Below are positions 352 to 20,135 of a stretch of DNA of 20,135 nt, in pieces. How positions within the stretch are numbered: the first letter of the stretch is position 1; each line of letters opens with the position of its first letter. Where the stretch lies: assembly GCA_031364845.1 (NCBI GenBank), contig JANLWX010000046.1, forward strand, positions 1 to 20,135, in the 5' to 3' direction. Below the pieces are notes generated by a model. That model was not told the origin of the DNA and made no database searches. It worked only from the letters and a program-made list of their open reading frames with translations. This stretch comes from Candidatus Eiseniibacteriota bacterium (GTDB taxonomy: Bacteria > Eisenbacteria > RBG-16-71-46). Made by a program: the position numbers and the translations under genes.

Positions 352-3300
352 CTACCTGAGGATGACAAGCCTCCGGGTGCCCTGGACGCCGGAAGCGCCG
401 AACACGACCTTTACGAAGTACATCCCGCGCTGAAGCGGCCTGCCGTCAGCTCCTTCACCGTTCCACGGGATGACGTGCTGTCCCGCCGGCAGCGAACCCG
501 GCTCGATCGAATGCACCAGACGCCCTGACACATCGAACACATGGATGTTCACCCGTTCCTCGCGTGCCAGCGCGAATCGAATCCCGGTGCTTCCGTTTCG
601 CAGCGGGTTATTGGCGAGGCCGAGCATCACCGTCGATCCCGGAATCTCGTTGTCCGTCACACCGACGACCGTCTGCTTGCACTTGCCCTGACCATCGATC
701 GCGAACAGCGCTGCGATCTCGGAGGCGTCCAGAGCGCGATTGAACAGTTCAACCTCGTCGATGTCGCCATTGAAGCCGATCGAACCACCGTTATACGACT
801 GCCCCAGGCGCAGGGGTGCGTTGTTCGTGACACTGCCCGGGCGCAGCGTGGGATTGAACGTCGCGATGGCCACCCCGTCCACATACATCTTGCCGCCGGT
901 CGTTCCGCCCGCGCGATCGACGGTCACCGCCACATGGTGCCAGCCGTTGTTGACGATCACCGGCGAAGGCGTCCCGTAGTTCGTGAAGCCCGAGGCGTCC
1001 GCCAGTTGGAAGCCGATGTGCCCGAAGCTGATGTAAATCGAGTACCCGATGCCGCCGGCCCGTTTGTCGAGAATCGTGCGCACCGACGTCGCCGCATCGG
1101 CCGTCTGCACCCACGCATCGATCGTGAAACTGCCGGTGCCGAAGTTGAGCGCGGGGCTGTTGATCGCCTCGACGTACTGCGTGCTGGCGCCAATGTGCGC
1201 GCCGCCGGCCACGCGTCCGGGCACATGACCGGCTCCACCAACATAGGTCGCGTGCGACCGTGCGAGCAGATCCGCCGCGATCGTCCCCGAGGTCTCATCC
1301 AAAGGCCACCACGCCGTCATACCGGCGGGCGGCGGAAGGCAAGCTGTTACCGGCGTCTTACACTTTCCATTCGAGCCGGCGGAGTGGAGCTGTGAGATTT
1401 CCGTCGCCGTCAGAGCGCGACCGAACAGCTCCACCTCGTCGATCTCGCCATTGAACGCGATCGAGCCACCGTCGAACGACTGCCCGAGACGCAGTGCCGC
1501 GGTATTCGTGATGCTGCCCGGGCGCAGCGTGGGATCGAACGTCGCGATCGAGGTGCCGTCCACGTACATCCGGCCGCCGGTCGTTCCGCCCGCGCGATCC
1601 ACGGTCACGGCCACATGGTGCCATCCGTTGTTGACGACCACCGGAGAGCTCGTGCCGTAGTTCGTAAACCCCGAAGCGTCCGCCAGTTGGAACCCGATGT
1701 GACCGAAGCTGATGTACATCGAGTACCCGATGCCACCGGCGCGTTTGTCGAGGATCGTCCGCACCGAAGTCGCCGCGTCGCTTGTCTGTACCCACGCGTC
1801 GATCGTGAAGCTGCCGGTGCCGAAGTTCAGACTCGGCGCGTCCGCGGCCGTGACGTACTGCGAGCCCGTGGCCAGGTGCACAGCGCCCGCCACGTTGCCG
1901 GCCACATGAGTCGCGCCTCCGATGAAAGCTCCGTGTGCGTTTCCGATCCGGTCCACGGCAGTGGGGTGTGAGGTCTCGTCGAGCGCGTACCAGGCGACCA
2001 TGCCGGGCGGCGGCGTGAGGCAACCGGTCGCGAAGCTCGCCGAGATCGTGTGGTTCGCCGTCACGTTCGTAAAGGTGTATCCCGTCACGGCTCCCACCGA
2101 AGACCCGTCCACCAGCACGTCCAGCACGTAGTAGCCCGGTGCCGGTGTGATCGTGTACGGCTGGCTCCCCGCGCAATTCACCGCGGTGACGCCGCTCGGG
2201 CTGATGGACCCATCCGCTCCCGCTGAGGCAGAGATGGAATAGGTGTCGATCGCGAAGCTTGCTGCGATCGTATGCGCCGCCGTCACGCCACTGAACGTAT
2301 ACGCCGTCACGGGCCCCACGGATATGCCGTCCACCAGCACATCCGCCACGTGGTAGCACGGTGCCGGGGTGATCGTGAATGCCTGGTCGGCGCCGCAATT
2401 CACGGCTACCGCGCCGGTCGGGCTGATCGCTCCGTTCGGCCCGGCGCTCGCCGTGATCGTATAGGTATCGAGCGCGAAGCTCGCGGCTATGGTGTGGTTC
2501 GCCGTCACGGTATTGAATGTATGGGTGGTCACGGCCCCGACCGACAACCCGTCGACCAGCACGTCCACGACGTGCGCGCACGGCGCCGGAGTGATCGTGA
2601 ATGTTTTGCTCGCGTTGTTCTGCACGGACACCGACCCGCTGGGGCTGATGGATCCATTGGCACCCGCGCTCGCGGCGATGGTCCAGGTCGGTTTGCACTT
2701 GCCGTTCGCGCCCGCGGAGAAGAGCTGCGAAACCTCGGTGGCCGTCAGGGCGCGCGCGAACATTTCGACTTCGTCGATGTCACCGTTGAACGAAATGCCC
2801 GGCTGCCCGAGGAGTAGAGGAGCGGTGTTGGTGACACTGCCCGGCCGCAGCGTGGGATTGAACGTGTTGATGACGACACCGTCCACATACATCCGGCCGC
2901 CCGTCGTCCCGCCCGCACGATCGACGGTCACCGCCACGTGGTGCCATCCGTTGTTGACGATCACGGGCGAAGGCGTGCCGTAGTTCGTGAAACCCGAAGC
3001 ATCAGCCAACTGGAAACCGAGGTGCCCGAACGAAATGTAGATCGAGTACCCGATACCGCCGGCCCGTTTGTCCGCGATCGTCCGAACCGATGTCGCCGCG
3101 TCGTTCGTCTGCATCCACATGTCGATCGTGAAACTGCCGCTGCCGAAGTTTAAACTCGGGGCGTTCGCCGCGGATACCGAACCATTCGTGAGATGGACAC
3201 CGTTCGCCACCTTCCCGGCGGCAAATGCCGCACCACCCACCAGCGACCCCGGCGCGACCGCGATGACGTTCACCGCGGCCGAACCCGACGCTTCGTCCAG

Positions 3301-4662
3301 TGGATACCATGCCACCATGCCCGGCGGCGGCGTGAGACAGCCGGCGGCGAAGCTCGCCGAAATCGTGTGGTTCGCGGCGATGCTCGTGAAGGCATGGCTC
3401 GTGACGGCGCCAATGGACACGCCGTCCACCACGACGTCGAGCACGTAGTAAGCTGGATCGGGCGTGATGGTGTACGTCTGGCTCTGTCCGAAATTCAGCG
3501 TCGTGACGCCGGACGGGCTCACGGTTCCGTTCGGGCCGGTCGAGGCGATGATCGTGTAGGCATTCAGCAGGACCGACACGGTATTGGAGTTCGAGTTTGG
3601 CGCCGCGATGTCGGGCCGACCGTCGGCGTTGAAGTCTCCGACCGCGGCAAAGCGCGTTTCACTCCCGGTCGGGAATGCTGCGGGCGCGGCAAACGCGCCG
3701 GCGCCATTGCCGAGCAAGATCGCAATCGACCCACTGGAGTTGTTGTTGGCCGCGGCCAAGTCAACTTTGCCGTCCGCGTCGAAATCACCGGGTGCAGCCA
3801 TCATCACCGAACCACCGGTCGGGTACTGCACCTGCGCGCCGAAGCTGCCCAACCCGTTGCCGAGCAGGACCGAAACCGTCCCTGAGTTCCGGTTGCCGAC
3901 GATCAGGTCGAGCTTGCCGTCTGAACTGACATCGCTTAGTCGGACACCATTGGGAGCAAGGCCGGCCGCGAAGTTGGTCGTCGCACCGTAATTACCGCCG
4001 CCCGTCCCGAGGAGAATCGAGGCATTGTTCGAACCCTCGTTCGCGACGGATATATCGATGTTTGCATCCGCGTTCAAGTGACCCAGCGTAACGCTCATGG
4101 GATGTGTGCCGACCGGGAACGTCGGCCCGACGGCAAAACTGCCCGCTCCGTTGCCGAGCAACAGGGTCACCGTGTTGTTGCTGTACCGGGTGACTACGAG
4201 ATCGAGCGTCCCGTTGTTGTTCACGTCGGCGACCGCGATCGCCGAGGGGTTGTTGGAAAGCGCAAAGTCGGTCTTGGGGCCAAACCCTCCCGCCCCGTTT
4301 CCCAGCAGTACGGACACTGTGCCTGTGCCCCCAAAGTTCGGGCACGCCGCGTCGAGTCTGGAGTCACCATTGAAATCGCCGAGCGCCACGTCGTAGGGGC
4401 TGCCGCCCGTAGCAAAGTCGGTTTTGGCACCAAAGGCGCCGGAGCCGGTTCCCAACAATACCGAGATCGACGAACCGCCAAGGTTGGCTGTAACCAGGTC
4501 GGATCGGCCATCACCGTTGAGATCTCCGACGGCGACACGAACCGGCAGGCTGCCGGTGGTGTAGGGCGCGTGAGTGAACGTGTAGGCGTGGGCCGCCACC
4601 ACCCCGGCCGGCAGCGCGGCGGCAATCAACAGGAGTGCGTTCAGCAAGGAGCGGCCTGACAT
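352..4662 (-). CDS. Large secreted/surface protein: signal peptide, 7 FG-GAP/VCBS repeats, 4 InlB B-repeat-like Ig units, 3 LamG-like jellyroll domains, C-terminal FlgD-Ig-like (T9SS-CTD-like) domain
   Basis: ORF 352..4743. Preferred start is ATG 4662 (MSGRSLLNALLLIAAALPAGVVAAHA, a signal peptide), with GGAGG 8 nt upstream (4671-4675). It has seven DxNxDGxxD-like motifs, four 'TIxASxGxxGxxSPxG...HTIxASFA' units and three 'WHHVAVT...YVDG...FNGxIDEVExFxRAL' domains. The C-terminus reads 'IHVFDVSGRLVH...WNGEGADG...GMYFVKV'. Confidence 0.9.
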   Translation of the reverse strand: MSGRSLLNALLLIAAALPAGVVAAHAYTFTHAPYTTGSLPVRVAVGDLNGDGRSDLVTANLGGSSISVLLGTGSGAFGAKTDFATGGSPYDVALGDFNGDSRLDAACPNFGGTGTVSVLLGNGAGGFGPKTDFALSNNPSAIAVADVNNNGTLDLVVTRYSNNTVTLLLGNGAGSFAVGPTFPVGTHPMSVTLGHLNADANIDISVANEGSNNASILLGTGGGNYGATTNFAAGLAPNGVRLSDVSSDGKLDLIVGNRNSGTVSVLLGNGLGSFGAQVQYPTGGSVMMAAPGDFDADGKVDLAAANNNSSGSIAILLGNGAGAFAAPAAFPTGSETRFAAVGDFNADGRPDIAAPNSNSNTVSVLLNAYTIIASTGPNGTVSPSGVTTLNFGQSQTYTITPDPAYYVLDVVVDGVSIGAVTSHAFTSIAANHTISASFAAGCLTPPPGMVAWYPLDEASGSAAVNVIAVAPGSLVGGAAFAAGKVANGVHLTNGSVSAANAPSLNFGSGSFTIDMWMQTNDAATSVRTIADKRAGGIGYSIYISFGHLGFQLADASGFTNYGTPSPVIVNNGWHHVAVTVDRAGGTTGGRMYVDGVVINTFNPTLRPGSVTNTAPLLLGQPGISFNGDIDEVEMFARALTATEVSQLFSAGANGKCKPTWTIAASAGANGSISPSGSVSVQNNASKTFTITPAPCAHVVDVLVDGLSVGAVTTHTFNTVTANHTIAASFALDTYTITASAGPNGAISPTGAVAVNCGADQAFTITPAPCYHVADVLVDGISVGPVTAYTFSGVTAAHTIAASFAIDTYSISASAGADGSISPSGVTAVNCAGSQPYTITPAPGYYVLDVLVDGSSVGAVTGYTFTNVTANHTISASFATGCLTPPPGMVAWYALDETSHPTAVDRIGNAHGAFIGGATHVAGNVAGAVHLATGSQYVTAADAPSLNFGTGSFTIDAWVQTSDAATSVRTILDKRAGGIGYSMYISFGHIGFQLADASGFTNYGTSSPVVVNNGWHHVAVTVDRAGGTTGGRMYVDGTSIATFDPTLRPGSITNTAALRLGQSFDGGSIAFNGEIDEVELFGRALTATEISQLHSAGSNGKCKTPVTACLPPPAGMTAWWPLDETSGTIAADLLARSHATYVGGAGHVPGRVAGGAHIGASTQYVEAINSPALNFGTGSFTIDAWVQTADAATSVRTILDKRAGGIGYSIYISFGHIGFQLADASGFTNYGTPSPVIVNNGWHHVAVTVDRAGGTTGGKMYVDGVAIATFNPTLRPGSVTNNAPLRLGQSYNGGSIGFNGDIDEVELFNRALDASEIAALFAIDGQGKCKQTVVGVTDNEIPGSTVMLGLANNPLRNGSTGIRFALAREERVNIHVFDVSGRLVHSIEPGSLPAGQHVIPWNGEGADGRPLQRGMYFVKVVFGASGVQGTRRLVILR
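679..3339 (-). repeat. Three highly similar LamG-domain coding repeats (~679-1341, ~1360-2022, ~2695-3339)
   Basis: Long shared peptide and DNA stretches, e.g. DAATSVRTIxDKRAGGIGYSxYISFGHxGFQLADASGFTNYGT and NNGWHHVAVTVDRAGGTTGG, occur in all three. Confidence 0.9.
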
Positions 4663-4906
4663 GACTTCGACCTCCAAGGGAGATTCACGGTCCTGGTGGG
4701 ACCCGACGGGCGACGACACCACATCGTGATCCGTCGAGCGCATAATGCGCGTATCAATCTGCCGGGTTCAGGTTGAAGCGTGCAGGCCTCATTTCGGAGC
4801 CCTGTGTCATCGACCACACAGGGTGGCAAGCGTGAAATTGCTGGCAGTGATCGGGCACGTGACCTATGATGCGGACGAGCCTGCATCCCTCAGGCACGGA
4901 GTTCAT

Positions 4907-6906: not shown

Positions 6907-8172
6907 TCAGCGGATGATCCGTCCGGTCGCCTGCAGGCTGATCGGCGTGTCGAGCGTGATCCGCGAGCCGGAGGCGGGCTCCTGATAGACGATCGCACCA
7001 ACCGTGGGTGCCGCGGGCGGCGTGATCACGCGGAATCCGAGCGACTCCAGATGCCGCCGCACGCCCGAGATCTCCCGGCCGACGAGATCGGGCATCACGT
7101 ATTGCTCCTGCCCGGTGCCGGCCGAGACCAGGAGTGCCACCGATGCGTTGCGGGGCAGCACGTTCTCCGCGGGCGGATCGGTGCCCGCGATCAGCCCCTC
7201 GCCCACTTCGTCCGAAGGCGCGCGCGTGATGCCGGTGACGCGCAGGCCCGAACGCTGCAGCAGAAAGCGCGCGCTGCGCAGCGATTCACCGAACAGGCTC
7301 GGCACCGAGCTGAATTCTTCACCGAGGCTCACCACCACCATCACGCGCTTGCGGCCGCGCACCGGCGTTTCGGGCGCGGGATCCTGCGAAAGAATGAAGC
7401 CGCGGGGCACGGCAGGATCGAAGCGTTCACCGGCGCGCGAGAGCACGAGGCCGAGCGGCTTCAAGGCGATCTCGGCCTGGTCGTAGTTGAGGTTCGCGAG
7501 GTCCGGCACTTTCACTTCGGCGGTGCTGTGGATGAAGCGCGGCATGATCAGGTTGTTGAACACGAACATGCCGGTGCCGAACGCAGCGAGGGCCGCGACC
7601 ACGAGCAACACCATCGCACCGATCCGCCGCCGCGGCGGCTGTGGGCCGCTCTGCGCTTCGATCTGCTCGTCGGTGTAGACCGGAATCTCGGACGCGGAAT
7701 CGACGTAGGGTCCGGGGCGTCCGGTCGGGAGATCTTGTTCGCGGAGTTCGGGAACGGGCGCAGGTTCGGGTTCGACCGCGACAACCGGTGCCGCTGCTTC
7801 GACGGGAACCGGCACTGCCGGATCGGCAATCTTGCCCGCTGCGCCGCGCTTGCGCTTCGTGCGTCGCGGGGTGAATGCGGGAGTCGGCGGAACTTCCGGC
7901 GGCGCGGAGGCCGCGACCGTCGCCGGAGCAACGCTTTCCGCGGGCACGGTCTCGACCACATCCGCCGCGACGTCGGCCGGCGAATCCGCCGCGCCTCTTC
8001 CGCTCACTGCCGACGCGGGCTGCTCGCGCTTCGTGCCGCCCCATGGCCATCCCCACCACGCTCGTTTCGGCGCCGGCGGCGCCGAAATGACGGGCTCGCG
8101 GAACAGCGCTTCGTACTCGTCGTGATGTTCTGCGGGTTGCCTGCCGCGATCAGGGTCTTCCGATTCGCTCAT
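6907..8172 (-). CDS. PASTA domain membrane protein (disordered N-terminus, 1 TM helix, 3 PASTA repeats, no kinase domain)
   Basis: ATG 8172 overlaps the rsmB stop (ATGA). TM segment IGAMVLLVVAALAAFGTGMFVF follows RRR. PASTA starts are VKVPDLANL, SVPSLFGE and VMPDLVGR, with QDP/TDP/QEP motifs. Confidence 0.88.
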   Translation of the reverse strand: MSESEDPDRGRQPAEHHDEYEALFREPVISAPPAPKRAWWGWPWGGTKREQPASAVSGRGAADSPADVAADVVETVPAESVAPATVAASAPPEVPPTPAFTPRRTKRKRGAAGKIADPAVPVPVEAAAPVVAVEPEPAPVPELREQDLPTGRPGPYVDSASEIPVYTDEQIEAQSGPQPPRRRIGAMVLLVVAALAAFGTGMFVFNNLIMPRFIHSTAEVKVPDLANLNYDQAEIALKPLGLVLSRAGERFDPAVPRGFILSQDPAPETPVRGRKRVMVVVSLGEEFSSVPSLFGESLRSARFLLQRSGLRVTGITRAPSDEVGEGLIAGTDPPAENVLPRNASVALLVSAGTGQEQYVMPDLVGREISGVRRHLESLGFRVITPPAAPTVGAIVYQEPASGSRITLDTPISLQATGRIIR

Positions 8173-10604
8173 GTCTTGCGGAAGCGTGCGGCGAATGCGC
8201 CGTCGCAGCCGTGGACGTGTGGCAGCACGCTCATGAATCCGTTCTCGTCGACGACCGCATCGGGCAACAGCCCGCTCGCGGTCTCGAGCACGAACGACGG
8301 ATTCATGCGCAGGAAACGATCGACGACCATCGTGGTCTCTTCGGGTTCGAATGAGCACACGCTGTACACCAGCACGCCGCCCGGACGAATGCGCGGGCCC
8401 GCGGCCATCAGCAGATCGAGCTGGATCGGCGGCATCTCGCGCAGTGTGTCCGGCGTCTTGCGCCAGCGGGCATCGGCGCGGCGTCCGAGCACGCCGAGCC
8501 CCGAGCACGGCGCATCGACCAGCACGCGGTCGAACGGCATCGGGAACGCGTACGTGCGGCCGTCGCCCTGCACCACGTGAATCGCATGCGCGCCGAGGCG
8601 CGCGATCGTGTTCTCGAGCGCCTGCACGCGCTCGGGTGCGCGCTCCATCGCCCACACTTCGCCTTCATCCCCCATCAGCTCGGCGAGATGCGTCGACTTG
8701 CCGCCGGGTGCGGCACACAGGTCGAGCAGCCGCTCGTGCGGCTGCGGAGCGACCAGGCGTCCGACCAGCGCTTCGCTCTCGTCCTGCACGGTGCAGAAGC
8801 CCTGCTTGAACGCGGCGAGCTTGCCGGGCGAGTGATGCGCATCGACCCACACCAGATCGGGCGACAACTCGGCAACGCGCGACTCCACGCCTTCGGCGGC
8901 GAGGCGCGCGATCAGTTCGTCGCGCGTTCCGCGCAGCAGGTTCACACGGAGACCGACCGGCACGTGTTTGTTGTCGGCGGTCATCAGCGCGCGCGTGGCG
9001 TCGGGGCCGAAGCGCGCGAGCCACCGTTCGACGAGCCACAGCGGATGCGAGCCCCACGCGGACAGCGAGACCGCATCGTCGCCTTCGGGAAGCACGATCG
9101 AATCCTTCTCGTCCACCAGCCTGCGCAGCACGCTGTTCGCGAGCCCCGCGGTGCCGGGATGTCCGTACTGGTTCGCGAGTTTCACCGACTCGTCGACCGC
9201 CGCGTGCGCGGGAATCCGGTCGAGGAACAGGATCTGATAGGCGCCCATGCGCAGCACATTACGCACCCACGGCTGCACCTGCGCGATGCCGATGTGGACG
9301 AGCGGATCGAGGATCGAATCGATCCGTCCGCGCCAGCGCAGCGTGCCTTTGACCAGCTCGTGCAGCAGCGACTGATCGCGCGGATCCCACTCGGTGCGCG
9401 CATGCGCGCCGTCGAGCAGGCGATCGCTGAACACACCGCGCGTGTCGACTTCGTGCAGGATCCGCAACGCCGCTTCGCGCGGATTGTCGGGCAGCACGAA
9501 GTTCTCCTCGGGCTCGATGCGATTCGGATGCGCCCCACCGCGACCACGCGGATCCACATTGCGCTGCGGCGAGCGCGGGTCGCCGTGACGGCGTTCGTTG
9601 CGTGAGGTGTGTCCGCTGCTGCGCGAGAACTGGCGCGGATTGGGACCGCGCGATTCGCCTCCGCCGGACGGCGACGGGCCTCGGCCGCCACTATTGGCCG
9701 ATCCACGCGCGTCGCGACCGCCCGCGGCCGAGCCACGACGGTCGCGTCCATTGGATGCAGGCCCGCGTGCAGAGTCGCCGCGCGGTGCACCACCACGATT
9801 GTCGCGGCCGCCTGCAGAGGGTCCGCGCGAATAGCCATTGCCCGCACTCTCGCCTCGCGGATCGCGGCCACCGGCGGCCGGACCGCGCGAACGATCGCCG
9901 CGATTGTCACGGCCGCCGGGACCGCGTGAAACGTTCGCTCCGCCGCGATTGTCGCGTCCGCCCGCTGCGGGTCCGCGCGCATAACCACCACGGTTGTCGC
10001 GACTCGCTCCGGTGCTGGGCGTATCTCCGCCGTTTGATCCGCCACGATTGTCACGGCCGCCGGCCGCAGGACCGCGCGAATATCCGCCGCTCGCTCCGCC
10101 GCCACGATTGTCGCGCCCGCCCGCCGCGGGACCGCGCGAATACCCGCCGCTCGATCCACCACCGCGATTGTCGCGTCCGCCCGCCGCGGGACCGCGCGAG
10201 TCGCGCCCCCCGGCGTATCCGGCGCTACGGCCCGTGCCTCCGCCGCTGCGCCCATCGCGTCCACCCGCGGGCCCGCGAACGTATCCCGGCCGGCCGCCGC
10301 GCACACCGCGGGCCGGCTGGTCGTAGATCGGTCGCGAACGATTCACCGCGTGCTTCTGATCGTCGAGCGGATCGTTGTCGTACGACGTGCCGGAATCGGG
10401 TGCCGGGCCACTCTCGCGGGCGGGTCCGCGTTCCTCGCCGCGGAACGATCCGCCGCGGGTGTCGTGCGGCGCGCCGCGATCGGGGCGCGGGCCGCGCGTG
10501 GGAGTGCGATCGATGCGGCTGCGTCGCGCATCGGCGGCCGGACGCGCGGCCGGCTCGTCACCGGCGATGCGTTCGGGACCCTTCTCGGGTCGGTCTTCGT
10601 TCAC
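8169..10604 (-). CDS. rsmB: 16S rRNA m5C967 methyltransferase RsmB/Sun with ~370-aa RGG-rich N-terminal extension
   Basis: NusB-like domain (REAALRIL...AYQILFLDRIPAHAAVDESV...NSVLR), followed by SHPLWLV, DLCAAPGGKS, DAPCSGLG and YSVCS. The GTG start at 10604 overlaps the fmt stop (GTGA), with GGAGGA 6 nt upstream. Confidence 0.93.
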   Translation of the reverse strand: MNEDRPEKGPERIAGDEPAARPAADARRSRIDRTPTRGPRPDRGAPHDTRGGSFRGEERGPARESGPAPDSGTSYDNDPLDDQKHAVNRSRPIYDQPARGVRGGRPGYVRGPAGGRDGRSGGGTGRSAGYAGGRDSRGPAAGGRDNRGGGSSGGYSRGPAAGGRDNRGGGASGGYSRGPAAGGRDNRGGSNGGDTPSTGASRDNRGGYARGPAAGGRDNRGGANVSRGPGGRDNRGDRSRGPAAGGRDPRGESAGNGYSRGPSAGGRDNRGGAPRGDSARGPASNGRDRRGSAAGGRDARGSANSGGRGPSPSGGGESRGPNPRQFSRSSGHTSRNERRHGDPRSPQRNVDPRGRGGAHPNRIEPEENFVLPDNPREAALRILHEVDTRGVFSDRLLDGAHARTEWDPRDQSLLHELVKGTLRWRGRIDSILDPLVHIGIAQVQPWVRNVLRMGAYQILFLDRIPAHAAVDESVKLANQYGHPGTAGLANSVLRRLVDEKDSIVLPEGDDAVSLSAWGSHPLWLVERWLARFGPDATRALMTADNKHVPVGLRVNLLRGTRDELIARLAAEGVESRVAELSPDLVWVDAHHSPGKLAAFKQGFCTVQDESEALVGRLVAPQPHERLLDLCAAPGGKSTHLAELMGDEGEVWAMERAPERVQALENTIARLGAHAIHVVQGDGRTYAFPMPFDRVLVDAPCSGLGVLGRRADARWRKTPDTLREMPPIQLDLLMAAGPRIRPGGVLVYSVCSFEPEETTMVVDRFLRMNPSFVLETASGLLPDAVVDENGFMSVLPHVHGCDGAFAARFRKT
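10021..10200 (-). repeat. Three tandem 60-bp units encoding SRGPAAGGRDNRGG-type repeats within rsmB
   Basis: Lines 10021, 10081 and 10141 align at a 60-nt period, with mostly synonymous differences in the conserved core. Confidence 0.85.
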
Positions 10605-11557
10605 GAAACTTCCTCCTCATTCCAGGCCATGCGCTCTCCGGGAGTCACGCGAGTGCCGCGCGCCCATTCGTTCGCATCCATTTCAGAGCGACCCTCCGGC
10701 TTCACCCGCAACAACTCGAGCGATCCCTGCCCGCACGCCACCCGGACTCCCGTCGCGGTCAGACTCACGAGGGTTCCAGGTGCTGCTTCTGCCGGCAGCA
10801 GATCGTGCGGCCGGCATTTCTGGATCAACAGTCGTTTCCCGTCCCATCCGGTCATCGCACCCGGCCACGGAGTCACGGCACGCTGATGGTTCGCGATGGT
10901 GACTGCGTCGGCGGTCCAGTCGACGATCCCATCATGCTTGGCGAGTTTCTTCGCGTACGTGCCTTCGCGCGGTTGTGCGAAACGCGGCGCGGTTCCCGCC
11001 GCAGCGAGCATCAGGCTCTCGGCGAGCAGCGGCGCGCCGGCTTCGGCAAGGCGCGCGGCCAGCGTTTCCGCCGTGTCTTCGGGCTCGACCGGCGCCCATT
11101 GCTGCAGGATGCAGTCGCCGGTATCGATGCCGTGGTCCATCCAGATCGTCGTCACTCCGGTCCCGCTGCGTCCGTCCCACAACGCGCGTTGCACCGGTGA
11201 GGCTCCGCGATAATCGGGCAACAACGATCCATGAAGATTGATCGCACCCAGGCGCGGAAGCGCGAGCCACTCCGCGTTGAGGATCGCGCCGAACGCGACC
11301 ACCGCGAACAGATCCGGGCTCAAGTCTTTGATTTCGGCCATCAGCGTTGCCGACTTCATCGTTTCCGGTTTCCACACATTGAGCCCGAGTTCGTCCGCCG
11401 CCTGCGCCACTTCCGACGGCGTGACCTTTCGCCCGCGCCCGCGCGGACGATCGGGCTGCGTCATCACCGCGACCACATCGCAGCGTCGCGCCACCGCCCG
11501 CAGCGACGGTACCGCGAAGTCCGGCGTACCCATGAACACGACCCGCGGGCGCGACAT
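10601..11557 (-). CDS. fmt: Methionyl-tRNA formyltransferase
   Basis: Motifs VFMGTPDFAVPSL, TQPDRPRGRG, INLHGSLLPDYRGASP, GVTTIWMDHGIDTGD and PWPGA. Confidence 0.97.
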   Translation of the reverse strand: MSRPRVVFMGTPDFAVPSLRAVARRCDVVAVMTQPDRPRGRGRKVTPSEVAQAADELGLNVWKPETMKSATLMAEIKDLSPDLFAVVAFGAILNAEWLALPRLGAINLHGSLLPDYRGASPVQRALWDGRSGTGVTTIWMDHGIDTGDCILQQWAPVEPEDTAETLAARLAEAGAPLLAESLMLAAAGTAPRFAQPREGTYAKKLAKHDGIVDWTADAVTIANHQRAVTPWPGAMTGWDGKRLLIQKCRPHDLLPAEAAPGTLVSLTATGVRVACGQGSLELLRVKPEGRSEMDANEWARGTRVTPGERMAWNEEEVS

Positions 11558-14583: not shown

Positions 14584-14857
14584 TTCAGATTTCCAGGGTC
14601 GTTGAGGTGGCCGCAGTGGGTGCCGCAGCACGGGGTGGCGGCAGCATACAACAACCGGGGCCGCCACAGGGAACCGGGTGGGCGGGAACCCGCCGCGCGC
14701 GGCCACCTCCAAACTGCACGGATTCCAACGGTTGAGTGCGCCGCGCGATCGGCCGATACCCCGGGCGACATTCCCGTTTGCGGGCGAAGCCATGCATTTC
14801 GCCCATCCCGCACCCCGTGGAACGCCTGGCTGGGCGCTCGAGGTCACTGTCGTCGGA

Positions 14858-17800
14858 ATGAATCGGAAGCGGAAGTTCCTTCTCGCGGCCGTGCTGGTCG
14901 TTGCCCTGTTCCCCCTCGGAGCATGGGCAGCAACCGCCGCACCCGAATCCCCTCGGGGAGGAGTGCGCGCGGCCGGGAAGGTCACTGGCGCGCGCGCCGC
15001 GGCAGGGATCGCAAAATCCGCCGGTCGCAACGGCGTCCTCGCGGATTCCGATCTCGAACTCGTCATGTCCGTGGACGACGCGACGCCCGATGTCGGCGAG
15101 GTCGTCACCTACACGGTCACACTCACCAATCAGGGTCCCGACGATGCGACCGGGATCGAGGTCACCGATCTGTTGCCGGCCGGGCTCACGTACGCGGACG
15201 CCACGCCGAGTGCGGGTTCCTATGTGAGCGGAACCGGAGTGTGGACCGTAGGCGATGTCGCGAACGGCGCCCAGGCGACACTCACGCTGAGAGCCACCGT
15301 GGATGCCGGTACCGGCGGAACTTCGATCGTCAGCGACGCCACGATCACCGCCAGCGACAACGCCGATGCCGATCCGCTCGACAACGCGGCGAGTCAGTCA
15401 GTGACCGTTCAGAGCGCGGATCTCGCGCTCTCGATGTCCGTCGACAATGCGACACCCGACATCGGCAACACCGTCACCTACACGCTCACGCTGACGAACC
15501 AGGGTCCGAACGATGCGACCGGCGTCACTGTCACCGACCTGCTGCCGGCCGGACTCACCTACGTGTCCTCCACGCCGAGCGTGGGCTCCTATGTGAGTGG
15601 GACCGGCGTGTGGACCGTGGGCGGCATCGCGAACGGCGCCCAGGCAACGCTCGCGTTGAGCGCTTCGGTGAATGCCGGGACCGCGGGAACTTCGATCGTC
15701 AACAGTGTCGCGATCACGGCCACGAACACGTTCGATGGCGATCCGCTCGACGACACGGCGAGCCAGTCGGTGACCGTCCAGAGCGCGGACCTCGCGCTCG
15801 CGATGTCGGTCGACGACACGACTCCGATCGTCGGCAGCACCGTCACCTACACCCTCACGCTCACCAATCAGGGTCCGGACGCCGCGGCAGGTGTCGCCGT
15901 CACCGACCTGTTGCCGGCGGGGCTCACGTATGTGTCCTCGACGCCGAGCGTGGGCTCTTATGTGAGCGGGACCGGTGTGTGGTCCGTGGGAGGCATCGCG
16001 AACGGTGCCCAGGCCACGCTCGCATTGAGCGCTTCGGTGAATGCCGGAACCGCGGGAACCTCGATCGTCAACAATGCCGCGATCACGGCCACGAACACTT
16101 TCGATGCCGATGCGCTCGACAACACGGCGAGCCGGTCGGTGACCGTCCAGAGCGCGGATCTCGCGCTCGCGATGTTGGTCAGCAATGCGACGCCCAACGT
16201 CGGCAACGCCGTCACGTACACGATCACGCTCACCAACCAGGGCCCGGATGCCGCGACCGGGGTGGCCGTCACCGACCTGCTTCCGGCAGGACTCACGTAC
16301 GTGTCCTCCACGCCGAGTGTGGGTTCGTACGCGAACTCGACCGGAGTTTGGACCGTGGGCGGGATCGCAAACGGCGCCCAGGCGACCCTCTCGCTGATTG
16401 CCACGGTGGATGCCGGGGCGGGCGGAACCTCCATCGTCAACAACGCGGCGATCACGGCGACCGACATCGCCGACGCCGATGCTCTCGACAACACGGCGAG
16501 CAGGTCGATCACGGTTCTGAGCGCCGATCTCTCACTGGCGATGGCAGTGAACAACGCAACGCCCAACGTCGGCAACACGATCACCTACACGATCACGCTC
16601 ACCAACCAGGGTCCGAACGCCGCGACCGGTGTTGCGGTGACCGACCTGTTGCCGGCAGGACTCACCTACGTGTTTTCGACGCCGAGTGTGGGTTCCTACG
16701 TGAGCGCGAGCGGAGTGTGGACCGTGGGCACGATCGCAAACGGCTCCAATGCCACGATGACGCTGAGCGCCTCGGTGAATTCCGGGACCGGCGGGACCTC
16801 GATCGTCAACAATGTTGCGATCACGGCCACGAACACATTCGATGCCGATCTCCTCGACAACTCGGCGAGCCGTTCGGTGGCCGTCCAGAGCGCGGACCTC
16901 AGGATCACGATGGCGGTCAGCGATTCCGTTCCGGATGAGCACGACTACATCACCATCACGCTCACGCTCAGCAATCTCGGCCCCAATGGCGCGAGCAGTG
17001 TGGTCGTCACCGATCTGCTGCCGGTGAAGCTCGAATACCAGAGTTCGACAGCAAGCCAGGGCGCCTACGTACCGGCGACCGGGCAGTGGAATGTCGGCAG
17101 CCTCGCGAATGGAGCGACCGCGACCCTCACGCTCGTCGTCAGGATCGGCAGCGGCACCAATGGATTACTGATCGTCAACAACGCGAGTGTCACGTCCGGC
17201 ACGTTCGATCCCGTGCTCACGAACAACTCGACGAGCCGGTCACTATTTGTCGACAGCTCCGAACTCGCGCTCACGATGACGGTGGACAACGCGACCTCGA
17301 ACGAAGGCCGCACGGTCACGTTCAATCTGAGCCTCAAGAACAACGGTCCCAAAGACGCGCATGGAACGAAGATCCAGGACATCCTCCCGGCCGGGCTCAC
17401 GTACGTCAGCTCGACTTCGAGCAAGGGGTCGTACTCGAGCGGGTCGGGCATTTGGAACATCGGGACGGTCAACAACGGCGTGACGGTGACGCTCGCGCTG
17501 CGCGCCTCGCTGAATGCCGGTACCGGCGGATCCACGATCGTCAATCGGGCCTCGGTCTTCGCTCTCGACGAGATCGACCCGGTCAGCACGAACGATTCGA
17601 CGAGCCGCTCGGTGAGGGTCCAGCTCGTCGAACTCGGCGTGGCGATGGCAGTGGACAACACCACGCCCAATGAAGGCGAGGCGGTCACCTACTCGCTCAC
17701 GGTGACCAACGGCGGACCCGATGCCGCGACGACGGTGGTCGTGGCCGACCTGCTGCCCTCGGGGCTGGCGCTTTCGAGCTCGACCCCGAGCCAGGGCACG

Positions 17801-20135
17801 TACACCGGTGGTACTGGCGCATGGGCGGTCGGAACACTCGGAGTCGGAGCGACGGCGTCACTCACGCTGGTGGCCACCCCATCGGCCGGCTCCGGCGGCC
17901 TCACGCTGGTCAACACCGCGACGGCGAGCGCCGATCAGGCGGATCACGTGACGCCCAACAACTCCGCGAGCAGAACCGTGATCGTCGAGAGCGCAAACCT
18001 CGGGCTCGCGCTGGCGGTGGACGACGCCACACCTAAGGTCGGGAACACGATCACCTACACGCTCACGCTCACCCACTACGGCCCCGATCCCGCTGCGGGG
18101 ATCACCGTCACGGACTTGCTGCCGGCCGGACTCACCTACTCCAGCTCGACCCCGAGCCAGGGAACTTATGTGAGCGGTACCGGTCTGTGGACTGTCGGAA
18201 GCATGACGCCCGGCACGAGCGCCACCCTGGTCGTCGTCGCCACCGTCAATAGCGGCACAGCGGGCACCACGATCGTCCACAACGCGAGCATCACCACGAG
18301 CGATCATCGGGACGTGGTGACCGCGAACAACTCCGCGAGCCGGTCGATCACCGTGCAGAGCGCCGATCTCGCATTGGCGATGGCGGTCAGCAATTCCACG
18401 CCGAACGTAGGCGCGACGATCATCTTCACGCTCACGCTCTCCAACAACGGTCCGGCCACTGCCGCAAGCATCGCGGTCACGGACCTGCTGCCCGCGGGAC
18501 TCACCTATGCCGGCTCGACGCCGAGCCAGGGAACCTATTCGAGCGGCACCGGCGTGTGGTCGGTCGGCAGTCTCGCGCTGGGCGCGAGCGCGACGCTCAC
18601 GCTGAGCGCGACCGTAGATGCGGGAACCCTCGGCACGACGATGACCAACACGACGAGCATCACGGCCTCCGACCAGGTGGACCTCGTGCCCGCCAACAAC
18701 ACGGCGAGCCGAACGGTGACGGTGCCGCTCGCCGATCTCGGCTACACGATGACCGTGAACAACTCGACGCCGAACGAAGGCGCGACGATCACCTACACGA
18801 TCTTCGTCATGAACTACGGACCGACCACCGCCACCGGCCTCGTCGTGGCCGACACGCTTCCGGCCGGGCTCACGCATGTGAGCGCAACGGCGACCACGGG
18901 CACCTATTCGAGCACCACAGGACTCTGGAGCGTGGGATCCCTCAGCACGGGCGCCACCGGCGCCACGCTCACCATCACGGCAGCGGTCGGCGCGGGCACG
19001 GGTGGCACGTCGATCACGAATCGCGTGGGCACCGCTTCCGCCAATCAGGCCGACCCGGTTCCCGGCAACAACACCGCGAGCGCGCCGGTCACGGTGAAGC
19101 TCGCGGATCTCGCTCTGACGATGTCGGTGGACAACACCTTCCCCAACGAAGGCACGACCGTCACCTACACCCTCACCCTGACCAACAATGGACCCGACGC
19201 CGCGAGCGGAGTGCGCGTCACCGACGTGCTTCCGGCGGGGATGACGTTCGTGAGCGCGACGCCGAGTCAGGGCACCTACACGAGTGGAACCGGCGTCTGG
19301 AACATCGGCACCACCGCCAACGCGGCGAGTGTCACCCTCGCGTTGCGCGGGCAGGCGAACACGGGTACGGGCGGCACGACCATCGTCAACTCGCCCACCA
19401 TCACGACGGCCAACGAGGCCGATCACAATGTCGCGAACAACGCCGCGAGCGTGCCGGTGACCGTTCAACTCGCCGACCTCGCGCTCGCGACGGTGGTGGA
19501 TGACGGAGGTCCGAACGAGGGCGCCACCGTCACCTACACGCTCACGCTCACGAACAACGGACCCGACCCGGCAACGGGCGTCTTCGTGTCCGACGTGCTG
19601 CCGACGGGCCTCTTCTACGCGAACTCGACGCCGAGTCAGGGCAGCTACGCGAGCGGCGCATGGAACGTGGGCAGTCTCGCCAACGGCGCGAGCGCCACGC
19701 TCTCGCTTGCGGCCACCGTCGGCACCGGTACCGGCGGCACCACGCTCGCCAACAGCGCCTCCGTCAGCGCCGCGGCCCAGGCCGACCACACGACGCCCAA
19801 CAACTCGGCGACCGCACCGCTGCTGGTGGAAAGTGCCGACCTCGGGCTCGCGATGATCGTGGACGACGCAGGTCCCAATGAGGGTGCCGCGATCAGCTTC
19901 ACACTCACGTTGTCCAACAATGGTCCCGATGTCGCGGCGGGCATTACGGTCTCCGATGTCCTGCCCGCGGGCCTCAGCTTCACCGGTGCGACGCCGAGCC
20001 AGGGCAGCTATGCGAGCGGCGATTGGATCGTCGGAACGCTTGCGATGGGCGCCAACGTTTCGCTCGTGATCGGCGCCACGGTCGATGCCGGCACCGGCGG
20101 CACCACGCTGGTTCACAGCGCGAGCGTCTCGGCGA
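14858..20135 (+). CDS. Giant secreted DUF11 (conserved repeat domain) tandem-repeat surface protein, partial at 3' end (>=1759 codons, >=14 repeats)
   Basis: ATG 14858 gives MNRKRKFLLAAVLVVALFPLGAWA, a signal peptide. Units resemble DLALAMSVDxxTPxVGxTVTYTLTLTNQGPDAATGVxVTDLLPAGLTYVSSTPSxGSYxSGTGVWTVGxxANGAxATLxL...IVNNAxIT...DxxxxDNxAS. All repeat starts and the window end are in the same frame. It is absent from the ORF track, consistent with no stop in the window. Confidence 0.92.
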   Translation, partial: MNRKRKFLLAAVLVVALFPLGAWAATAAPESPRGGVRAAGKVTGARAAAGIAKSAGRNGVLADSDLELVMSVDDATPDVGEVVTYTVTLTNQGPDDATGIEVTDLLPAGLTYADATPSAGSYVSGTGVWTVGDVANGAQATLTLRATVDAGTGGTSIVSDATITASDNADADPLDNAASQSVTVQSADLALSMSVDNATPDIGNTVTYTLTLTNQGPNDATGVTVTDLLPAGLTYVSSTPSVGSYVSGTGVWTVGGIANGAQATLALSASVNAGTAGTSIVNSVAITATNTFDGDPLDDTASQSVTVQSADLALAMSVDDTTPIVGSTVTYTLTLTNQGPDAAAGVAVTDLLPAGLTYVSSTPSVGSYVSGTGVWSVGGIANGAQATLALSASVNAGTAGTSIVNNAAITATNTFDADALDNTASRSVTVQSADLALAMLVSNATPNVGNAVTYTITLTNQGPDAATGVAVTDLLPAGLTYVSSTPSVGSYANSTGVWTVGGIANGAQATLSLIATVDAGAGGTSIVNNAAITATDIADADALDNTASRSITVLSADLSLAMAVNNATPNVGNTITYTITLTNQGPNAATGVAVTDLLPAGLTYVFSTPSVGSYVSASGVWTVGTIANGSNATMTLSASVNSGTGGTSIVNNVAITATNTFDADLLDNSASRSVAVQSADLRITMAVSDSVPDEHDYITITLTLSNLGPNGASSVVVTDLLPVKLEYQSSTASQGAYVPATGQWNVGSLANGATATLTLVVRIGSGTNGLLIVNNASVTSGTFDPVLTNNSTSRSLFVDSSELALTMTVDNATSNEGRTVTFNLSLKNNGPKDAHGTKIQDILPAGLTYVSSTSSKGSYSSGSGIWNIGTVNNGVTVTLALRASLNAGTGGSTIVNRASVFALDEIDPVSTNDSTSRSVRVQLVELGVAMAVDNTTPNEGEAVTYSLTVTNGGPDAATTVVVADLLPSGLALSSSTPSQGTYTGGTGAWAVGTLGVGATASLTLVATPSAGSGGLTLVNTATASADQADHVTPNNSASRTVIVESANLGLALAVDDATPKVGNTITYTLTLTHYGPDPAAGITVTDLLPAGLTYSSSTPSQGTYVSGTGLWTVGSMTPGTSATLVVVATVNSGTAGTTIVHNASITTSDHRDVVTANNSASRSITVQSADLALAMAVSNSTPNVGATIIFTLTLSNNGPATAASIAVTDLLPAGLTYAGSTPSQGTYSSGTGVWSVGSLALGASATLTLSATVDAGTLGTTMTNTTSITASDQVDLVPANNTASRTVTVPLADLGYTMTVNNSTPNEGATITYTIFVMNYGPTTATGLVVADTLPAGLTHVSATATTGTYSSTTGLWSVGSLSTGATGATLTITAAVGAGTGGTSITNRVGTASANQADPVPGNNTASAPVTVKLADLALTMSVDNTFPNEGTTVTYTLTLTNNGPDAASGVRVTDVLPAGMTFVSATPSQGTYTSGTGVWNIGTTANAASVTLALRGQANTGTGGTTIVNSPTITTANEADHNVANNAASVPVTVQLADLALATVVDDGGPNEGATVTYTLTLTNNGPDPATGVFVSDVLPTGLFYANSTPSQGSYASGAWNVGSLANGASATLSLAATVGTGTGGTTLANSASVSAAAQADHTTPNNSATAPLLVESADLGLAMIVDDAGPNEGAAISFTLTLSNNGPDVAAGITVSDVLPAGLSFTGATPSQGSYASGDWIVGTLAMGANVSLVIGATVDAGTGGTTLVHSASVSA
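15050..20135 (+). repeat. 14 tandem ~369-bp (121-124 aa) DUF11 repeat units
   Basis: Unit starts: 15050, 15419, 15788, 16157, 16526, 16895, 17261, 17630, 17996, 18365, 18734, 19106, 19475, 19838 (last unit truncated by the window end). Confidence 0.92.

Follow-up and report, generated by a model that had tools for sequence, protein, structure and literature searches.

Why should RsmB, a 16S rRNA methyltransferase, carry a 372-amino acid (aa) tail rich in Arg and Gly ahead of its core? The gene in question lies on a stretch of 20,135 nucleotides from a Candidatus Eiseniibacteriota bacterium (contig JANLWX010000046.1, here called the window), and an earlier note on this DNA had proposed that the tail is a fibrillarin-like domain that might nucleate condensates of ribosome biogenesis. 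We found that the tail is likely translated and that, in the aligned relatives, its sole strictly conserved element is a short motif that the earlier note overlooked (family consensus QAGAVNRSRPIY, hereafter the NRSRP motif). On balance we lean toward a reading in which the tail is an RNA-gripping arm that would hold RsmB on nascent 16S rRNA, with the motif docking on a partner.

The gene and its parts are as follows.

8169..10604, minus strand: rsmB, 811 aa (372-aa tail plus 439-aa core), start GTG at 10604; TIGR00563, NF011494
10601..10616, minus strand: GGAGGA Shine-Dalgarno (SD) sequence in the last fmt codons and GTG start over the fmt TGA (offset -4)
9487..10604, minus strand: rsmB extension, upstream of the core
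10359..10604, minus strand: tail part 1, aa 1-82, charged, near neutral, weakly conserved
10323..10358, minus strand: conserved short motif, aa 83-94, QKHAVNRSRPIY
9705..10280, minus strand: RG/RGG repeat tract, aa 109-300, with 10 GGRD motifs
10039-10199, minus strand: 60-bp tandem array inside the repeat tract
9489..9704, minus strand: linker, aa 301-372, containing an internal GTG at 9497
9114..9485, minus strand: NusB-like N-terminal domain, aa 374-497 (Pfam PF01029)
8844..9047, minus strand: ferredoxin-like domain, aa 520-587 (Pfam PF22458)
8178..8753, minus strand: 5-methylcytosine (m5C) methyltransferase domain, aa 618-809, with Cys700 and Cys750 (Pfam PF01189)

Identity of the window protein as RsmB

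By its profile scores, domains, and catalytic residues, the window gene encodes a true RsmB, of the 16S m5C967 methyltransferase family. The protein scores above the NCBIfam cut-offs of TIGR00563 (348.2 versus 269.05) and NF011494 (385.4 versus 319) and under the cut-off of each of the NF008149, NF011493, NF011495, and RsmF models. The NusB-like, ferredoxin-like, and methyltransferase domains that RsmB membership requires are all present, and Cys700, Cys750, and the CAAPGGK stretch, an S-adenosylmethionine-binding motif, are invariant in 50 of 50 aligned sequences. Moreover, both catalytic cysteines align with those of Escherichia coli RsmB (1SQF), which is the best match in the PDB (E = 1.5e-57), and the core (aa 371-811) was modeled with confidence by AlphaFold2. 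The protein is the sole Sun-family match in its own genome. As the 16S gene is absent from the window's own assembly, the context of C967 in 16S helix 31 was checked in five near-complete family relatives, and none of the five showed a mismatch. A fusion that takes over from NusB was rejected because the genome has a separate nusB.

An extension of about 370 aa, as the earlier note had put it, is thus borne out by the 811-aa open reading frame, its 372-aa tail, and an intact core. The note had also let the catalytic core begin near 9486; the NusB-like domain does start there, but the methyltransferase domain starts only at aa 618, at about 8753.

Evidence for translation from the long start

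The GGAGGA sequence sits 6 nt 5' of the GTG at 10604, and this start overlaps the fmt stop as GTGA, so both long-start signals given in the earlier note are present. That note did not mention an in-frame GTG at 9497, which follows GAGGAG at a distance of 6 nt and might serve as a second start. This site favors an alternative in which the extension is untranslated or a minor form and the protein begins at 9497. To compare starts, we gathered 110 loci, 94 of them distinct and with the core start in view; the 56 whose cores are at least 60% identical are called the family, and fmt is in view in 38 of these. An ATG, GTG, or TTG overlaps the fmt stop (NTGA) in all 38. From 35 of these starts the frame runs uninterrupted into the core, one locus uses an ATG at +1 that is in frame, and the remaining two are broken by N gaps, so that all 36 gap-free loci can start in frame at the fmt stop. 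An SD match of at least 4 nt accompanies 35 of the 38. Near the core, 36 of 55 loci lack any ATG, GTG, or TTG within -15 to +10 codons, and a start codon there that also has an SD match is seen in only 4 of 55.

An open frame alone proves little, because off-frames are stop-free in about half of the tails (18 and 19 of 35), as long frames stay open in GC-rich DNA; when the nucleotides of the window tail were shuffled, 4 of 2,000 trials left its frame open. It is the fixed start and frame across tails of varied length that provide evidence for translation. Contigs of a related strain, taken from another study, show net length changes of -249, +180, and +15 nt in the tail plus several 3-nt indels, with a single 1-nt gap in one contig at a depth of 3.9, and public gene calls include long RsmB forms. 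In addition, the motif described below is kept at the peptide level, which argues against an untranslated extension. The 372-aa tail is thus likely to be translated from the long start, a minor short form from 9497 is possible in the window genome, and the alternative, in which the extension is untranslated or only a minor form and the protein begins at 9497, is scarcely credible.

We also rejected the tail as an assembly artifact, as contigs of one public run, which may be the source sample, match 9300-10134 (identical) and 10146-10800 (four differing letters); a 71-nt contig bridges the gap between these two stretches with about 30 letters per side, just below the match threshold. The copy number of the 60-bp array lacks independent confirmation, and any change in it would stay in frame.

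A short motif conserved across the family tails

The NRSRP motif is present in 51 of the 56 family loci; of the five without it, three are truncated by the end of a contig and two have the shortest tails (27 and 47 aa). It was found in 33 of 33 complete tails of at least 70 aa versus 22 of 70,000 shuffles. The N, R, and R are invariant, and S, P, Y, and A are conserved at 90% or more (40 rows). Like a short linear motif, it forms an island of peptide conservation in a fast-changing disordered region. A motif profile gave a single match in each of 46 of 59 family genomes; outside the family, it matched in 1 of 91 genomes, at threshold and away from rsmB. Our literature search found no paper on an RsmB tail or on the motif.

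Two other origins for the motif were considered and rejected. Its codons vary synonymously, and the search for signals gave no promoter-like site and only one chance-level terminator, on the opposite strand, which speaks against a DNA or RNA element. Mimicry of another protein was discarded because the motif had no PDB match at E 10, no second copy was found in its own genome, and the 5 hits obtained from 10 candidates were all RsmB.

Does the motif bind the core of its own protein, for autoinhibition or for release after methyl transfer, with the tail as a regulatory leash? A motif that is single-copy, confined to the RsmB of one family, and at least 39 aa from the core at all loci (39-308 aa) is in keeping with such self-docking. 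In two AlphaFold2 monomer models (30 and 50 sequences), however, the motif reached a pLDDT (predicted local distance difference test) of only 35-40, and no core position that is invariant among the motif-bearing sequences is changed in both motif-less members, although each of these is a weak test. The tail and motif lie below a pLDDT of 50 in a short-tail ortholog as well as in the window protein. We regard self-docking as very unlikely. Since neither model places the motif on the RsmB core, its most likely partner is rRNA or an early assembly or transcription factor.

Composition, repeats, and length of the tails

The 372-aa tail contains 24% Gly, 18% Arg, and 0.5% Lys, with a net charge of +27 and a charged fraction of 0.30. 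The net charge per residue of aa 1-85 is -0.02, and a BLASTP comparison with a same-genus tail gave no match in tail part 1. A linker stretch at about aa 326-367 is common to the same-genus relative, and the related-strain contigs also match 9508-9629. As the earlier note had counted, there are 10 GGRD motifs, many in a repeat unit. The tail also has 9 RGG and 31 RG; the exact unit SRGPAAGGRDNRGG occurs three times, RGPxAGGRD six times, and GGRDNRGG five times. Chance gave at most one GGRD in 2,000 nucleotide shuffles and three in 5,000 residue shuffles, while at least nine RGG appeared in 1.1% of residue shuffles. Among seven aligned 12-codon units, codon positions 1, 2, and 3 differ from the consensus in 5, 3, and 28 places, respectively, and the codon changes comprise 24 synonymous versus 5 nonsynonymous, in agreement with the mainly silent variation already reported.

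The tail therefore has closely spaced RG/RGG in a predicted disordered region, as glycine/arginine-rich (GAR) domains do, and an Arg/Gly/Pro-rich charged make-up with Arg far above Lys, as in the DEAD-box protein CsdA. AlphaFold2 gave a pLDDT below 50 over aa 1-359, in line with the disorder that had been expected; an ESM Atlas search with aa 70-372 returned a best score of 0.81, the chance level. The fibrillarin-like RGG domain of the earlier note stands insofar as the tail is predicted to be disordered and positively charged. Conservation of RGG does not: across 35 family tails, RGG counts range from 0 to 9, mostly 0-3, with the window genome as the maximum, and much of the Arg/Gly/Pro richness follows from a GC content of about 74%.

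The length survey proposed in the earlier note did turn up comparable tails in orthologs. Family tails run from 27 to 404 aa (median 139), and other members have unrelated repeat units such as PRREGGF and RAPRPGGD. The repeats lie 3' of the motif in the window genus and before it in other clades, even within the sister pair L035 and L038, which suggests separate expansions. How many of these were independent can be given only approximately, as our trees were built by a quick method and their deep branches are weak. All 35 tails carry a positive net charge. Compared with nucleotide shuffles, the 35 pooled tails are enriched in Phe (4.2x), Asn (3.6x), Tyr (3.4x), Asp (2.5x), and Glu (2.1x), while Cys, His, Trp, and Leu occur at 0.01-0.32x and Ala is depleted too.

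Two general explanations for the tails were rejected. Charge compensation might be suspected from family cores that are more acidic (median -7 versus -1 to +3), but this does not track tail length. A genome-wide indel bias does not fit the uncorrelated lengths of the RsmB tails and those of the pseudouridine synthase RluB (see below), nor RlmI-like tails that are clear in only about 3-4 of 29 genomes.

A proposed RNA-gripping arm weighed against a near-neutral spacer

In the reading that we modestly favor, the basic tail would grip newly made, protein-poor 16S rRNA and keep RsmB there. Many weak contacts of Arg and Phe/Tyr with RNA may raise local concentration, capture, and dwell time, and the motif would supply one specific contact to a particular partner. 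The tail may also draw RsmB as a client into RNA-rich foci at the single rRNA operon. In several lineages separately, the repeat units probably grew through in-frame slippage, to one side of the motif or the other. Selection appears to keep the frame, composition, and motif of the tails and not their length or repeat unit.

Several observations weigh against this reading. Tail length varies 15-fold, and the two family members with 27- and 47-aa tails have no motif, so that neither tail length nor the motif is indispensable. In the pooled tails, Arg, Gly, and Pro reach only 1.19x, 1.14x, and 1.05x their GC-driven expectation. The tail evolves faster than the core, as in the pair L047 and L048 (14 nonsynonymous versus 19 synonymous codons in the tail; 19 versus 53 in the core). 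Core charge and tail length are uncorrelated (rho = -0.21, p = 0.23, n = 35), and the internal GTG at 9497 is usable in the window genome. Finally, our proteome survey (below) relied on a custom crude gene caller (3,166 genes) that missed RluB.

Some of the same facts suit a spacer, in which only the motif matters and the repeats are tolerated, near-neutral products of slippage in GC-rich DNA; selection would merely hold the frame open, through coupling to fmt, and purge aggregation-prone residues. An Arg/Gly/Pro content close to the GC expectation, 35 tails in 32 distinct lengths, the wide range of motif-to-core distances, and unrelated units placed 5' of the motif in some clades and 3' in others are all what a spacer would give. 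On the other hand, the silent-biased repeat changes point to selection on the peptide, and the enrichment of Phe, Tyr, Asn, and Asp, the location of Arg-rich tails on RNA proteins rather than proteome-wide, and protein-specific expansions (one family, f3, combines long RsmB tails with short RluB tails) are not expected of a passive spacer. We consider the spacer unlikely.

Arg-rich tails on other proteins and the case for a condensate

The survey of the window's own genome found nine Arg-rich regions of low hydrophobicity of at least 100 aa, seven of them on RNA proteins: RsmB (the longest), Jag/KhpB, RNase III, S1, an RlmI-like methyltransferase, a DEAD-box helicase, and a Rho-like protein. 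One of the two non-RNA cases probably has a wrong start, and most other low-hydrophobic regions in the genome are Ala-rich and Arg-poor. The RluB-like pseudouridine synthase of this genome, a protein of 550 aa (L162:1309-2961, plus strand), carries a 310-aa C-terminal Arg/Gly/Pro repeat tail. After 3 of 28 RluB loci had been dropped as unclosed or broken, RluB tails measured 133-439 aa in 16 of 16 family genomes and 11-29 aa in five f3 genomes. Their lengths do not covary with those of RsmB tails (rho = 0.12, p = 0.57, n = 25; within the family, rho = 0.42, p = 0.11, n = 16).

Several details of these proteins were recorded alongside. The Arg-rich RNA-protein loci of the genome include L111, L112, L113, L115, L116, and L126; Jag/KhpB has about 300 aa of internal Arg/Gly repeats and RNase III a long C-terminal tail, and Arg-rich tails are also found on S1, the RlmI-like methyltransferase, an RhlE-like helicase, and PNPase. 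For the Rho-like protein (L118, contig C104), the match to Rho models is confined to their ATPase part; where Rho usually has its RNA-binding domain, this protein has an Arg-rich N-terminal arm of about 105 aa. The gene 5' of rluB (L162:131-1312, plus strand), which we take to resemble scpB, encodes a very long Asp/Glu-rich C-terminal tail. A SpoU/TrmH methyltransferase (PF00588) was not found in the window's own genome, which is 97% complete, and was detected in 14 of 14 controls.

Could such tails build a compartment rather than hold an enzyme? In the main text of a preprint on E. coli CsdA (bioRxiv 10.64898/2026.09.17.752289), the disordered regions of this protein, which are Arg-, Gly-, and Pro-rich and charged like the RsmB tail, drive a condensate at rrn, termed a bacterial nucleolus, that favors early co-transcriptional steps, where RsmB acts. 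By analogy, the RsmB and RluB tails would phase-separate with nascent rRNA and nucleate a nucleolus-like compartment, replacing CsdA. The preprint lends added plausibility to the condensate idea of the earlier note. The CsdA/DbpA RNA-binding domain was found in just 5 of 151 phylum genomes, and the copy in the window's own genome (L225:2-1393, minus strand) is fused to a non-DEAD-box helicase. The long RluB tails in every family genome measured and the single 16S gene in each of five near-complete relatives also fit such a scaffold.

Yet with 3% aromatic residues and a net positive charge, condensation of the tail would need RNA, and RsmB is monomeric and probably of low abundance, unlike cold-induced CsdA. 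The median family tail is 139 aa, many families have tails below 30 aa, and such variable lengths do not befit a required scaffold; nor do the RsmB and RluB tails covary, and CsdA was likewise not found in short-tailed families. "RsmB" has no match in the main text of the CsdA preprint, and the one literature match for RsmB and condensates (PMC9037510) concerns the RsmB small RNA. We judge the scaffold distinctly unlikely. A bolder joint claim is that Eisenbacteria, where the CsdA-type helicase is hardly ever found, assemble a nucleolus-like compartment at their single rRNA operon out of their own rRNA-modifying enzymes. The multivalent, Arg-rich tails of RsmB and RluB would condense on nascent rRNA, and the NRSRP motif would anchor RsmB to the transcription or early assembly machinery, as an independently reached bacterial counterpart of the fibrillarin/NOP2 nucleolar layer. 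This claim seems to us more doubtful still.

Spread of the tails and the surrounding genes

The closest relatives are mostly Candidatus Eisenbacteria, and four loci under other names nest among them in a quick tree. We sorted 20 loci of the phylum's other families by eye: basic arms of 12-57 aa lie before the core in 12, longer tails in 4, and the last four show little or no tail (0-7 aa, or no link of the start to fmt) or one of about 46 aa. Read by eye, long RsmB tails measure about 106 aa in family f18, 232 aa in f14, and 422 aa in f16, and f3 combines two loci with 16-19 aa and five with 263-397 aa. The f3 and f16 tails have their own conserved stretches near the core, approximately RxARPxRxDAxTG in f3 and MRRELGLPSDEDIERE in f16; the f3 stretch is faintly like the NRSRP motif (L026-L030, P0016; L131, L079). 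A set of 28 RsmB-like proteins of at least 770 aa comprises 21 single RsmB chains with long extensions or inserts, the rest being fusions or uncertain. Five of these long-protein tails were inspected: in a quick tree, one (402 aa) groups with Bacillota and two fall outside Eisenbacteria.

In some public gene calls (P0020, P0023, P0025-P0029), RsmB forms one chain with Fmt and Rpe, with a radical-SAM (RlmN-like) domain, or with a TruA-type domain, and some of these fusions may be frameshift artifacts. Genome G021 has two rsmB copies on different contigs. G020 (L023), a genome in one contig, has frameshifts in rsmB and fmt that are probably sequencing errors.

In the window, rsmB belongs to a minus-strand operon in the order tgt-yajC-def-fmt-rsmB-PASTA-rpe, with these direct neighbors.

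10601..11557, minus strand: fmt, upstream of rsmB, overlapping the rsmB start
6907..8172, minus strand: gene of a three-PASTA membrane protein, overlapping the rsmB stop (ATGA)

The PASTA protein is without a kinase domain and has an Ala/Pro/Glu-rich N-terminal region. Elsewhere, 352-4743 (minus strand) encodes a secreted protein of 1,463 aa with FG-GAP repeats, three laminin-G/concanavalin domains, and a C-terminal FlgD-Ig domain, and 14678-20135 (plus strand) encodes a large repeat protein with tandem units of 369 bp that extends past the window end.

Taken as a natural series, the same enzyme with tails of 27-404 aa (0-29 aa in sister families) around one fixed motif could discriminate between added RNA affinity, added condensation, and passenger status, and the motif points to a family-specific interaction in ribosome assembly.

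Comparison with known systems

The window protein shares with E. coli RsmB (Fmu/Sun, 1SQF) its three domains, both catalytic cysteines, and its place after def-fmt. However, the E. coli protein has 429 aa and is tail-less, whereas the window RsmB has 372 extra residues with repeats and the family motif. According to the parts of PMC13674486 drawn on here, E. coli RsmB is a co-transcriptional chaperone that binds the 16S 3' domain during transcription, works on its early intermediates prior to S19, aids S7 binding, blocks S19 until methyl transfer is completed, and binds weakly in dilute solution.

Long RsmB tails are not confined to the window genome, and Gly/Arg tails on bacterial rRNA methyltransferases have already been published. 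The actinobacterial 23S rRNA methyltransferases ErmE, PikR1, and PikR2 carry disordered, Gly/Arg-rich low-complexity tails, for which binding to assembly intermediates was proposed, and ErmC' is active without them (passages of PMC6787224). These enzymes belong to another family and their tails are C-terminal, 64-93 aa long, and without a conserved motif in the same passages. Since these cases are on record, the comparison with fibrillarin is an analogy rather than the nearest precedent. More broadly, in the portion of PMC6821194 used here, bacterial RNA proteins show an excess of Arg-rich low-complexity regions. Pseudomonas aeruginosa RluB is likewise an rRNA-modifying enzyme with a disordered tail, in which ten independent mutations clustered in an evolution experiment; it differs in being a pseudouridine synthase with its tail at the C terminus (sections of PMC8662654 consulted).

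E. coli CsdA resembles the window RsmB in its Arg/Gly/Pro-rich charged disordered regions, its role as an early ribosome-biogenesis enzyme, and, in the main text of the preprint (bioRxiv 10.64898/2026.09.17.752289), repeated origins across bacteria. In contrast, CsdA is a cold-induced DEAD-box ATPase with dimerization and RNA-binding domains whose condensation was shown experimentally.

Among eukaryotic proteins, NOP2/NSUN1 is a homologous m5C methyltransferase; the human chain has 812 aa, and the match is confined to residues 301-586. Disordered N-terminal or GAR regions direct NOP2, fibrillarin, and nucleolin to the nucleolus. No likeness to these was found in the sequence of the tail, and RGG is unconserved in the window family. 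In composition and distribution, the feature is akin to other Arg-rich tails on RNA enzymes and not to a conserved GAR domain, and, as judged from the sequence comparisons, tails of the window type arose within bacteria, several times.

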